A stretch of 64,000 nucleotides of DNA, taken from a virus (lineage: Duplodnaviria > Heunggongvirae > Uroviricota > Caudoviricetes). The stretch is from the IMG/VR virus record IMGVR_UViG_2880412407_000011; one strand, given 5' to 3'. The position numbers are program-made. Positions 9,001-12,000 of the stretch are shown here, piece by piece. The first letter of the stretch is position 1, and each line of letters begins with the position of its first letter.

Positions 9001-12000
9001 GGTCGTTAAGCCGGGCCGTGAATCCATGCCGGTATTCCACAATACCCGGGTACTGGTGGAGCCGGAACCGAAAAGCATGCGTAATCTGCCGTCCGGGGTC
9101 GTTCCTGCCGTTCGCCAGCCGCTGGTGGAAGACAAAACATTGCTGCCGTTTTTCAGTAACGCACGGGTAATTCGTGCTGCTGGTGGTGCTGGTGCATTGT
9201 CTGACTGGCTGTTGCGCCATATTAAATCCTGCCAGTGGCCACACGGCGATTATCATCACAGCGAAACCGTTATTCACCGATATGGTACCGGCGCAATGGT
9301 GTTGTGCTGGCACTGCGACAACCAGCTGCGTGACCAGACATCCGAATCACTCGAGCAACTTGCTCATCAAAACCTGTCAGCATGGATGATTGACGTCATC
9401 GGTCACGCAATAAGCGGTACGCAGGAGCGTGAATTATCTCTGGCTGAATTATCCTGGTGGGCGGTCCGCAATCAGGTGGCGGACGCGCTACCGGAAGCGG
9501 TATTACGTCGCTCGCTGGGATTACCAGCGGAAAAAAACTGCTCGGTGTACCGCGAAAGCGACATCGTACCGGGAGAGCAGACCGCCACCAGCATATTGAA
9601 ACAGCGCACAAAAAATCTTGCACCGTTGCCTCACGCCCACCAGCAACAAAACCCATCACAGGAAAAGACGGTGGTAAGCATCACCGTTGATCCAGAGTCT
9701 CCGGAATCTTTCATGAAGCTGCCTAAACGTCACCGTTGGGTTAAGGAGAAATACACACGCTGGGTTAAGACACAGCCGTGTGCTTGCTGCGGTATGCCAG
9801 CCGACGATCCGCATCATCTGATTGGTCACGGGCAGGGCGGAATGGGAACCAAAGCACATGATCTCTTTGTGTTGCCTTTGTGCAGAAAGCATCACGACGA
9901 GCTGCATGCGAATACCGTGGCATTTGAAGAGAAGTATGGCTCCCAGCTGGAGCTGATATTTCGTTTTATCGATCGTGCGCTGGCAATAGGCGTACTGGCG
10001 TAAGTGGAGAACGAGCATGAACCTTGAAGCTTTACCAAAATATTACTCCCCAAAATCTCCAAAATTGAGTGATGACGCACCGGCGACAGGCTCGGGTGGT
10101 TTAACAATAACAGATGTGATGGCTGCGCAGGGGATGGTGCAGTCGAAAGCTCCGCTTGGTTTTGCCTTATTCCTGGCAAAAGTTGGTGTTCAGGATCCTC
10201 AGTTTGCGATTGAAGGTCTGCTCAATTACGCGATGGCAATGGATAATCCGACATTGAACAAATTGAGTGAAGAAATCCGGTTACAGATCATCCCTTACCT
10301 TGTGAATTTTGCCTTTGCTGATTATTCCAGGTCTGCGGCAAGTAAGGCTCGCTGTGAGTATTGTGCTGGTACTGGATTTCATAATGTATTGCGCGAAGTG
10401 GTGAAACACTCCAGAAGTGGGGAATCTGTTATCAAGGAAGAGTGGGTGAAGGAACTATGTCAGCATTGCCATGGTAAGGGAGAAGTCAGCACAGCGTGCA
10501 GAGGGTGTAAGGGGAAAGGTATTGTCCTGGATGAAAAAAGAACCCGGCTTCATAGCACGCCTGTTTATAAGGTTTGTGGGCGTTGCAATGGAAACCGGTT
10601 TAGTCGTTTATCAACGACACTGGCGCGGTGTCATGTCCAGAAGCTGGTACCAGACCTGACGGATTATCAGTGGTACAAAGGATATGCAGATGTCATTGAT
10701 AAACTGGTTACAAAGTGCTGGCAGGAAGAAGCATATGCTGAGGTGCAATTAAGAAAAGTGACGAGATAAATGATTTTCACCGAACGATGGCGACATAACG
10801 ATTGTATTTTCTAAGGAAACGTGCAAAGAGTTTTCCAATGATGAGCCTTATATGCATACCTGTGGAAAATATCAATAAGCCGCGCAGAGTGGTTTTTTTG
10901 TGGACATAAACTTTGTGCAGAACGGTAACCATTATGGTTGCCGTGAATGCAGTTTTTTTACATTGCTGGCTTTTTTAGATTTGTGTTAGTTATTGATATT
11001 AACAAGAAGGGGAAAAGACATGCTAAAACGGCAGGATATGAAGGAAACGGTTATGCGTGAATGTTCCAGTGTGATTAACCATATCATCTGGAGAAGCCAT
11101 CCTGATGCAGGGAAGAGGTAACAGTAACGCGCATCAATCAGGCTGCAAATAAATGGCTTACGCCGGAAATCTGGCTATCGATGTATTACCGGTTTGTTAC
11201 CCATGAAGAAAATTAAGGTGATAACGAAACTGATTTTATAGGTGTCTTGTCAGAGTGTTGCGATGAAACTTGTGTTGGCAGTGCAGGGAAAACAGTAGGA
11301 TGAAAATTATAAATTGCTTTAAATGAGCTTGATTTTCCTCATGTTATGAGATATTTGTCTTATATTGCTGGTTAATTATGAAAGTTTTTGTAAATCTACA
11401 GCAATAAAATCCATATTAATTAAAGCACTAGATGCGTTTCTGATTTGTGCATGAAACATACATATCATAATGATTAATTGCATCTATAATTACAGATACA
11501 GCATTGTGCTGTTAAAAAACTGGAGTCCCCATGAATACATTATATGTAAGTGATTCAAATGAAAAATCTCATGACAGGAATAAAAACAATGAGGATAGTA
11601 AGGGTAAGGATAATAAAAAAGACAACCGGAAAGAGTAAATAATCTTTCCTGCATAAAAATACTAGGGTGGAATATGTCAGAACATCCAGATTTTGATGAC
11701 CGTAAGCCTGATGATGAGCCCGTTGAGCGTCCTGATGAGGGGCAACCATTGAACCCTTTTTCACCGGATGATAAAAGAGATCCTATTATTTAGATATAGC
11801 AGAATATAGCCGTTTAAAGTAGGTTGTGTTTTGTTGCTATCCTTAAACCACCTCCACAGGAGGTGGTTTTTTACTAATGGAACATTAATTGGCAGATGTG
11901 ATTGTGTACGACTTATGGGAGGCTTAAGATTATTTTCTGCCAATAATAAAACCAAGCGTTAACCCTATGCTTAGAGCAACCACCACGCTAGTCAGTGGAT

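Follow-up and report, generated by a model that had tools for sequence, protein, structure and literature searches.

The window analysed here is a stretch of 64,000 nucleotides of DNA from the IMG/VR virus record IMGVR_UViG_2880412407_000011 (Caudoviricetes). Between the antiterminator gene Q and cspF it carries two small open reading frames (ORFs), ORF1 and ORF2, which end at an intrinsic terminator and which, on balance, are probably two real, very young orphan genes encoding disordered hydrophilic peptides and forming a bicistronic moron. Q (positions 10017-10769, plus strand; 250 amino acids, aa) is annotated and is of the ydfT/quuQ type (Pfam PF03589, 1.3e-49; phrog_127); its product is 97% identical to Q of SfV and 92% identical to YdfT of K-12. 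It forms the left border of the interval (10770-12885), and cspF is annotated beyond the right end, at 12886-13098 on the minus strand. The segment is Escherichia coli DNA, chromosomes of the O121:H19 type (e.g. NZ_CP027454) being 100% identical to the window over positions 10770-12900. According to the RefSeq annotation of NZ_CP027454 this is a Qin-like defective prophage with IS3 copies close by, and the gene order is ydfU, Q (ydfT), a 61-aa hypothetical protein (minus strand), a 29-aa hypothetical protein (minus strand), cspF (minus strand), cspB, ynfU and essQ.

ORF1 (11531-11638, plus strand) starts with ATG, is preceded by the Shine-Dalgarno (SD) sequence GGAG at 11522-11525 and encodes a peptide of 35 aa, MNTLYVSDSNEKSHDRNKNNEDSKGKDNKKDNRKE. 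ORF2 (11674-11793, plus strand) also starts with ATG, has the SD sequence AGGGTGG at 11664-11670 and encodes 39 aa, MSEHPDFDDRKPDDEPVERPDEGQPLNPFSPDDKRDPII. A preliminary description of this DNA had reported two highly charged ORFs of 35 and 39 aa at 11531-11793, and both the coordinates and the composition agree with our results. The ORF1 product is very hydrophilic and near-neutral, with a grand average of hydropathy (GRAVY) of -2.51 and an isoelectric point (pI) of 8.1, while that of ORF2 is acidic and proline-rich (GRAVY -1.73, pI 4.1; 13 acidic residues and 8 prolines) and contains DFDD and PDDE-type motifs. Each of the two ORFs was called as a gene on no fewer than 1000 contigs. Both are annotated as hypothetical proteins in the phage records PhiR63_1 and HannyBb; the two ORFs are already deposited under this label in some GenBank records, unnamed and unstudied. 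It had also been stated that the interval holds no long ORF, and the longest frame is indeed only a 94-aa frame with a TTG start on the minus strand, containing the 61-aa ATG gene. Short ORFs are frequent, with 73 of at least 25 aa in 4.5 kb.

Both SD sequences are well spaced from the ATG, with duplex energies with the anti-SD of -5.9 kcal/mol for ORF1 and -6.7 kcal/mol for ORF2. The window has 238 ATG ORFs of 30-60 aa, of which about 9-18% have an SD as good as that of ORF1 and about 4-9% one as good as that of ORF2; -6 kcal/mol was reached by about 9% and -7 kcal/mol by about 4% of these short ORFs, as compared with 38% and 17% of the ORFs of at least 150 aa. First-order Markov resampling of positions 11300-11843 (3000 resamples) never produced two ATG ORFs of 35 aa or more that had such SD sequences and lay on one strand without overlap; a single one was produced in 5.8% of the resamples. 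The thresholds for ORF length and SD were fixed only once ORF1 and ORF2 had been seen. The 383-nt unit taken as a whole is more structured than shuffled sequences (z -3.8), but its two start regions are less so (z +0.8 for ORF1 and +0.6 for ORF2).

Three-base periodicity is pronounced in both ORFs (chi-square test, p=0.002 for ORF1 and p=6e-6 for ORF2). The genes cspF and the 61-aa gene are less periodic (both p=0.011), and p values for eight other non-overlapping ORFs of the interval range from 0.03 to 0.6. The GC content of ORF2 by codon position falls from 0.71 (GC1) through 0.37 (GC2) to 0.26 (GC3), which is the order usual for coding sequences. In sliding windows the periodic signal is located over the two ORFs and fades about 30-60 nt past their ends, and the GC-rich phase changes from 2 to 1 between ORF1 and ORF2, matching their differing frames. 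A search for tandem repeats able to mimic periodicity found none.

The ORF1-ORF2 unit is closed by an intrinsic terminator on the plus strand (11845-11875), identified by folding. Its perfectly paired 11-bp stem occupies 11845-11869 around a 3-nt loop, and the U-run extends to 11875. A clean terminator at 11844-11873 had been noted before, and the folding bears this out. For the 61 nt around it the folding energy is -23.7 kcal/mol (z -4.6), a value matched by none of 200 shuffled sequences. This terminator is absent from the list returned by the consensus scan. It separates the unit from the 61-aa gene, which converges on the same terminator. Ahead of it lies a plus-strand hairpin of 19 bp (11793-11841), which opens with the final base of the ORF2 stop codon; with G.U at six of its pairs, it can form only in plus-strand RNA. 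The terminator begins three bases past this hairpin, and the joint 89 nt fold at -36.7 kcal/mol (z -7.3). The 19-bp hairpin could serve as an mRNA stabiliser or be part of a 3'-derived small RNA (sRNA). A smaller plus-strand hairpin of 7 bp (11628-11649, z -4.4) holds the ORF1 stop codon in its loop.

The terminator also occurs elsewhere. In 15 other E. coli genomes a copy of the 47-nt stretch that includes it (11829-11875), 91.5% identical, follows a gene for an N6-DNA-methylase, this second setting being an integrative element with ArdC and DUF1281 (e.g. in E. coli UMNK88); to judge by these copies, the terminator may be a portable, travelling module. A scan of positions 8000-16000 against Rfam 15 with E values up to 1 revealed no relevant RNA family, and the only match near the ORFs was a chance snoRNA match at 11403-11479 (24 bits, cut-off 50). 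Farther away the same database matched the cspA-type thermoregulator 5' untranslated region over cspB (13238-13661, 158.9 bits) and, in an IS3 element, the ALIL frameshift pseudoknot (8004-8120, 121.5 bits).

Upstream of ORF1 the plus-strand sequence is AT-rich over 11300-11530 (about 25-30% GC). It contains a candidate sigma-70 promoter on the plus strand, with ATATCA as the -35 element, a 17-nt spacer and TATAAT at 11485-11490, from which transcription is predicted to start at about 11497.

Of 5426 complete E. coli genomes, 39 contain the 600 bp around the ORFs, with identities of 99.3% or more, and both ORFs are intact in PhiR63_1 and HannyBb (99.7-99.8% identical), the only carriers among 50,697 phage records. 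Sixteen IMG/VR loci and five metagenome contigs also carry the ORFs, at 97.6-100% identity. In a collection of 15 billion proteins the exact peptides are present on at least 1000 contigs each, accompanied otherwise by single-residue variants only. The carriers include O121:H19, O103 and strains named as Shiga toxin-producing E. coli, as well as the two sequenced phages, and no virulence or defence link was found. No paper describing this region of PhiR63_1 and HannyBb was found in the literature on these phages. Among 25 aligned copies three substitutions fall within the ORFs, all missense and conservative (S13T, S23G and D36E), and neither a stop codon nor an indel occurs within them, while the neighbouring gene debris has a 32-bp indel. 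The density of single nucleotide polymorphisms (SNPs) in the ORFs is 3 in 228 nt, or 1.3 per 100 nt; in the non-coding flanks it is about 2.2-2.9, a difference that is not significant. Rare frameshift variants are present, including a natural ORF1-ORF2 fusion.

Searches for diverged copies extended to genomes and metagenomes. A degenerate DNA pattern for ORF2 had no match in species-representative genomes; in metagenomes it recovered five near-identical E. coli copies and two chance matches, the latter in soil or rhizosphere contigs where unrelated sequence encodes KPDFDDRKPDDD in frame with stops on both sides. The 61-aa neighbour, used as bait for diverged cassettes, revealed none in representative genomes and 16 near-identical loci in IMG/VR. 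The possibility that the ORFs are a fragment of the neighbouring methylase or orf47 genes, or of Ayreon genes, was rejected, as tblastn found no match to these within 11300-11900. The best profile match was that of ORF1 to phrog_31206, below threshold at E 0.36. The 90%-identity cluster of ORF2 also lists a 292-aa spermidine/putrescine permease without visible similarity, which is probably a clustering artefact. The preliminary description held that its proposal would fall if both conservation and a translation signal were missing. No conservation was found beyond near-identical copies and, since no diverged copies exist, this lack of conservation is trivial; translation signals and a coding-type pattern, by contrast, are present.

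The two ORFs lie in an orphan AT-rich cassette of about 0.9 kb (11300-12190), comprising ORF1, ORF2, the double hairpin with the terminator, and the convergent 61-aa gene. The GC content is 0.255-0.415 across 11300-12199 as against 0.44-0.575 across 9000-10799; for Q and ydfU it is about 48-57%. No match to 11300-12190 was found in the databases searched, and among related phages only PhiR63_1 and HannyBb matched 11300-11900. Neither K-12 Qin nor SfV has the segment; the match between K-12 Qin and the window (95% identity) begins exactly at 12406, and in SfV and Ayreon Q is followed by the late-promoter region and then by other genes, without the cassette.

On both sides the cassette is flanked by gene fragments on the plus strand; it lies inside a 1.64-kb patchwork of orf47, methylase, ren and rha pieces between two copies of a late-promoter-like unit. 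The first 11 codons of an orf47-like gene (11020-11052; blastn and tblastn to SfV orf47) are fused to an internal fragment of a DNA-methylase gene (11053-11105; blastn and tblastn to SfV orf48). A ren-like fragment follows at about 11170-11290, with 73-75% identity to 'protein ren' of the lambda type in BLAST searches, and a 32-bp deletion polymorphism affects 11141-11172 in three IMG/VR loci. The right border of the cassette is a 5' fragment of rha (12191-12385), consisting of the first 183 nt of the gene and 12 nt upstream, which is 79% identical to the start of the PhiR26_1 Rha gene and coincides with a periodicity peak.

Two small minus-strand genes of the interval were not mentioned in the preliminary description. 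The first, the convergent 61-aa gene (11930-12115), is annotated by the Prokaryotic Genome Annotation Pipeline (PGAP; WP_000203370), matches phrog_11629 (4.8e-47), a PHROG of its own, and has the SD sequence AGGA at 12124-12127; an extended -10 promoter, TGCTATAAT, can be read from the sequence at 12155-12147 on the minus strand. Its product has a C-terminal glycine-zipper-like membrane anchor, and no relatives were found outside its own cluster. The end of this anchor, ...GLTLGFIIGRK, resembles DUF883_C of the tail-anchored ElaB/YqjD/YgaM (DUF883) proteins, and one UniRef entry labels the protein as DUF883 domain-containing. However, the Pfam match to DUF883_C is below threshold (E 0.14; 12.3 bits, cut-off 27), and unlike ElaB, YqjD and YgaM the protein is about 40 aa shorter and has no relatives beyond its cluster. 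The second gene, ynfS, encodes 29 aa at 12742-12831 on the minus strand (Pfam YnfS, 4.7e-23).

The preliminary description expected the late promoter and the Q-utilisation (qut) site within the interval. Units of this kind are indeed present, at 10802-10895 and 12495-12593, but not at the ORFs (11531-11793). The last 58 nt of Q and the sequence that follows them are present twice, at 10712-10784 and 12406-12478, with 77% identity over 73 nt and 1694 nt apart, and tblastn identifies 12406-12463 (plus strand), the direct repeat of 10712-10769, as what is left of a second Q gene, namely its last 18 codons. Both copies were aligned with the regions downstream of Q in K-12, SfV and Ayreon. The conserved unit consists of a -35 element TTGCAT, a 17-nt spacer, a -10 element TAAAAT or TAAGAT, CAAYGATGGGCTTTGTATA at the transcript start and a GC-rich hairpin terminator about 50 nt on, and a terminator is annotated at the homologous position in SfV and Ayreon. 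This is the layout of lambda pR'.

Copy 1 (10802-10899, plus strand) is degenerate. It has TTGTAT at 10802-10807, AAGAGT at 10826-10831, AATGAT at 10837-10842 and a weak hairpin at 10877-10895 with a U-run, thus deviating in the -35 (TTGTAT), the -10 (AAAGAG/AAGAGT), the early transcribed element and the terminator stem. Copy 2 (12495-12600, plus strand) is consensus-like, with TTGCAT at 12495-12500, TAAAGT at 12519-12524, AACGAT at 12531-12536 and a strong hairpin at 12570-12593. The hairpin stretch of copy 1 (51 nt) folds at -10.1 kcal/mol (z -1.1) and that of copy 2 (56 nt) at -24.3 kcal/mol (z -6.1). In PhiR63_1 and HannyBb copy 2 reads TTGCAT-17-TAAAAT. Copy 2 is probably the working late promoter, located about 1.7 kb downstream of Q, with copy 1 probably a degenerate duplicate. 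Relative to 16 of the 18 copies compared, copy 2 of the window has an extra A in the spacer (12506; 18 instead of 17 nt) and TAAAGT in place of TAAAAT (12523), and these two changes fit the decay of a defective prophage interrupted by insertion sequence (IS) elements.

Among the suggestions made earlier for ORF1 and ORF2 was that they could be moron products, and the evidence favours it, the AT-rich segment being absent from K-12 Qin and SfV and having its own terminator. The moron concept is said to go back to Juhala, Hendrix and colleagues; lambdoid examples are bor and lom of lambda and the stx genes downstream of Q. The cassette is absent from close relatives, inserted between conserved elements, of deviant base composition and equipped with a terminator of its own; insertion, composition, terminator and small cargo fit a moron, while promoter and expression are at the level of candidates. 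Like lambdoid morons it is extra DNA in the region between Q and the lysis genes, with deviant composition, its own terminator and possibly its own promoter. It differs from them in that its cargo is two peptides of 35 and 39 aa without relatives, that the promoter is only a candidate, that fragments of other genes surround it, and that its position is probably ahead of the working late promoter, not inside the late operon. From the genomes compared, the cassette is apparently carried by a minority lineage of Qin-like lambdoid phages and prophages, between Q and the probable working late promoter.

The anatomy of the cassette, its insertion, the terminator and the coding-like statistics are shown by the sequence itself, whereas we infer from which promoter and at what time such a unit would be expressed, and how it would be translated and used. 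It would form one short plus-strand transcription unit, comprising the AT-rich upstream region with the candidate promoter, ORF1 and ORF2 each with its SD and ATG, the 19-bp hairpin and the terminator. Transcription may come from the local candidate promoter with TATAAT at 11485-11490, from antiterminated read-through from Q, or from both. In a lysogen, any transcript from the local promoter would halt at 11875, which would insulate the cassette from the lysis genes as well as from the convergent gene. In the lytic cycle, polymerase that comes through Q in antiterminated form would also transcribe the ORFs and pass the terminator. Both peptides are predicted to be unfolded, and their most plausible mode of action would be to bind, through short linear motifs, a partner from the host or the phage.

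A number of results weigh against two genuine young genes. PGAP leaves both ORFs unannotated, and Pfam, NCBIfam, PHROGs and PADLOC contain no family above threshold for either of them. Neither the concatenated ORFs, searched against 5.8 billion clustered proteins, nor the fusion variant, searched by HMMER against 1.84 billion protein representatives, matched anything beyond their own cluster, and tblastn against the 50,697 phage records returned only PhiR63_1 and HannyBb. All known copies are at least 97.6% identical, with all three substitutions being missense. The candidate promoter has a perfect TATAAT but a poor -35 element, with ATATCA agreeing at 3 of 6 positions, and the consensus scan for promoters found 10 sites where 8.6 are expected from shuffled sequences, i.e. 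no excess. The AlphaFold model of the ORF1-ORF2 fusion variant, made from the single sequence, is featureless (predicted local distance difference test score 63, predicted template modelling score 0.13). Finally, gene fragments of orf47, methylase, ren and rha lie on both sides of the cassette, and in sliding windows the ren-like fragment is periodic too.

The flanking fragments and the periodicity of the ren-like one point to another explanation, namely that ORF1 and ORF2 are dead coding relics, the intact-looking remains of one or two foreign genes from the patchwork that have stayed open by luck and are no longer expressed or selected. Since the ren-like debris is also periodic, periodicity reveals coding ancestry and not present function; the missense character of all three substitutions, the non-significant SNP deficit of the ORFs, and the rare frameshift variants with their ORF1-ORF2 fusion are likewise consistent with relics. 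However, both ORFs have kept an ATG, a well-spaced SD and an unstructured start, the periodicity is strongest over the ORFs and fades within about 30-60 nt of their ends, and the 25 aligned copies are free of stops and indels, with a pair of this kind arising by chance in fewer than 1 of 3000 resamples. Moreover, no parent gene was detected for the ORFs, whereas the parents of the neighbouring fragments were easily found. We regard dead relics as the main rival explanation and give them a modest chance of being correct.

A plus-strand RNA as the actual product, with the ORFs being incidental, is unlikely. Such a product might be a non-coding RNA, or the G.U-rich hairpin and the terminator (11793-11875) might together form an sRNA of about 80 nt. 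Small RNAs such as lambda 6S RNA and StxS are known to come from the prophage DNA that follows Q. The very stable 89-nt 3' end (z -7.3) would agree with this, as would the six G.U pairs, which function in plus-strand RNA only, and a consensus-level promoter-like site, TTCACC-18-TATTAT at 11760-11789, which would place a start at the foot of the hairpin. Yet this promoter-like site is at chance level, no Rfam family was matched with E values up to 1, and a 3' double hairpin is equally normal in an mRNA. An RNA product also leaves unexplained the frame-matched periodicity, the two SD-ATG pairs and the open start regions.

Very unlikely, too, is a new kind of phage accessory peptide system, in which ORF2 would mimic acidic tails or DNA and so lure away a host protein that binds them, such as partners of the C-terminal tail of SSB, a nuclease or a defence sensor, with ORF1 as its partner or modulator; the same holds for a prophage sRNA, comprising the G.U-rich hairpin and the terminator, that would be cut from the 3' end of the mRNA. 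No result specifically supports either idea, and ORF2 does not have the C-terminal aromatic residue used by real SSB tails.

The preliminary description also suggested leader peptides. That ORF1 and ORF2 are attenuator leader peptides, or part of the qut site and late promoter, and control read-through into the late genes might be considered from their position on the strand of the late genes, between Q and the lysis genes and ahead of a terminator. The results do not bear this out, and we regard it as extremely improbable. Homology to the units of K-12 Qin, SfV and Ayreon is found at 10802-10895 and 12495-12593 and not at the ORFs. The end of ORF2 is 51 nt short of the terminator stem, and the minimum free energy folds of the 3' region are two independent hairpins, without a competing antiterminator pairing. 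No plus-strand gene lies ahead of the second promoter, minus-strand genes and gene fragments coming next; cspB, the next intact plus-strand gene after ORF2, starts at 13399, about 1.5 kb off and past the second promoter/terminator unit. The segment is, in addition, missing from most Qin-like prophages. In lambda the pR'-qut-tR' unit makes the short 6S RNA. The interval resembles it in having two units with a -35, a 17-18-nt spacer, a -10, AAYGATGGG at the transcript start and a hairpin terminator about 50 nt on, and differs in that the ORFs lie between the two units and are part of neither.

There is hardly any chance that the real gene is an antisense ORF of 64 or 69 aa (11555-11764, minus strand, GTG start) with ORF1 and ORF2 as its shadows: although its 69-aa frame is open, has a hydrophobic C-terminal stretch of about 27 residues and shows some periodicity (p=0.016), the phase switch between the ORF1 and ORF2 halves is impossible for a single frame and thus excludes it as the source of the periodicity, its GTG lacks a well-placed SD, it is called on 5 contigs compared with at least 1000 for ORF1 and ORF2, no family above threshold and no relatives were found for it, and the terminator and the plus-strand-only hairpin are on the opposite strand.

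For ORF1 and ORF2 as young small-protein genes there is a precedent in the same prophage neighbourhood. In K-12 the small proteins YnfS, YnfR and YnfQ of the Qin cold-shock region have been detected experimentally (PMC6001520). Epitope tagging revealed, among them, the 29-aa YnfS, whose gene lies between cspF and ydfT, which provides a precedent for small-protein genes within the same Q-cspF interval. The likeness lies in the very small size of the ORFs and in their location, YnfS being encoded in the same interval. There is, however, no sequence relationship, YnfS is hydrophobic whereas the products of ORF1 and ORF2 are extremely hydrophilic, and K-12 has no cassette; the Qin proteins are experimentally supported, whereas ORF1 and ORF2 are predictions from sequence.

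The picture of the interval between Q and cspF is corrected in that the late promoter is duplicated and the DNA between its copies is a patchwork of recombination scars; the practical value of this is modest. The cassette is an ordinary kind of phage moron, and the ORF pair is a compact and easily testable candidate for small-protein discovery. If translated, ORF1 and ORF2 would add two more members to the very small, taxonomically restricted prophage proteins, a class that is missed by standard annotation, PGAP having skipped both. Such proteins may be young or de novo genes on phage cargo cassettes.

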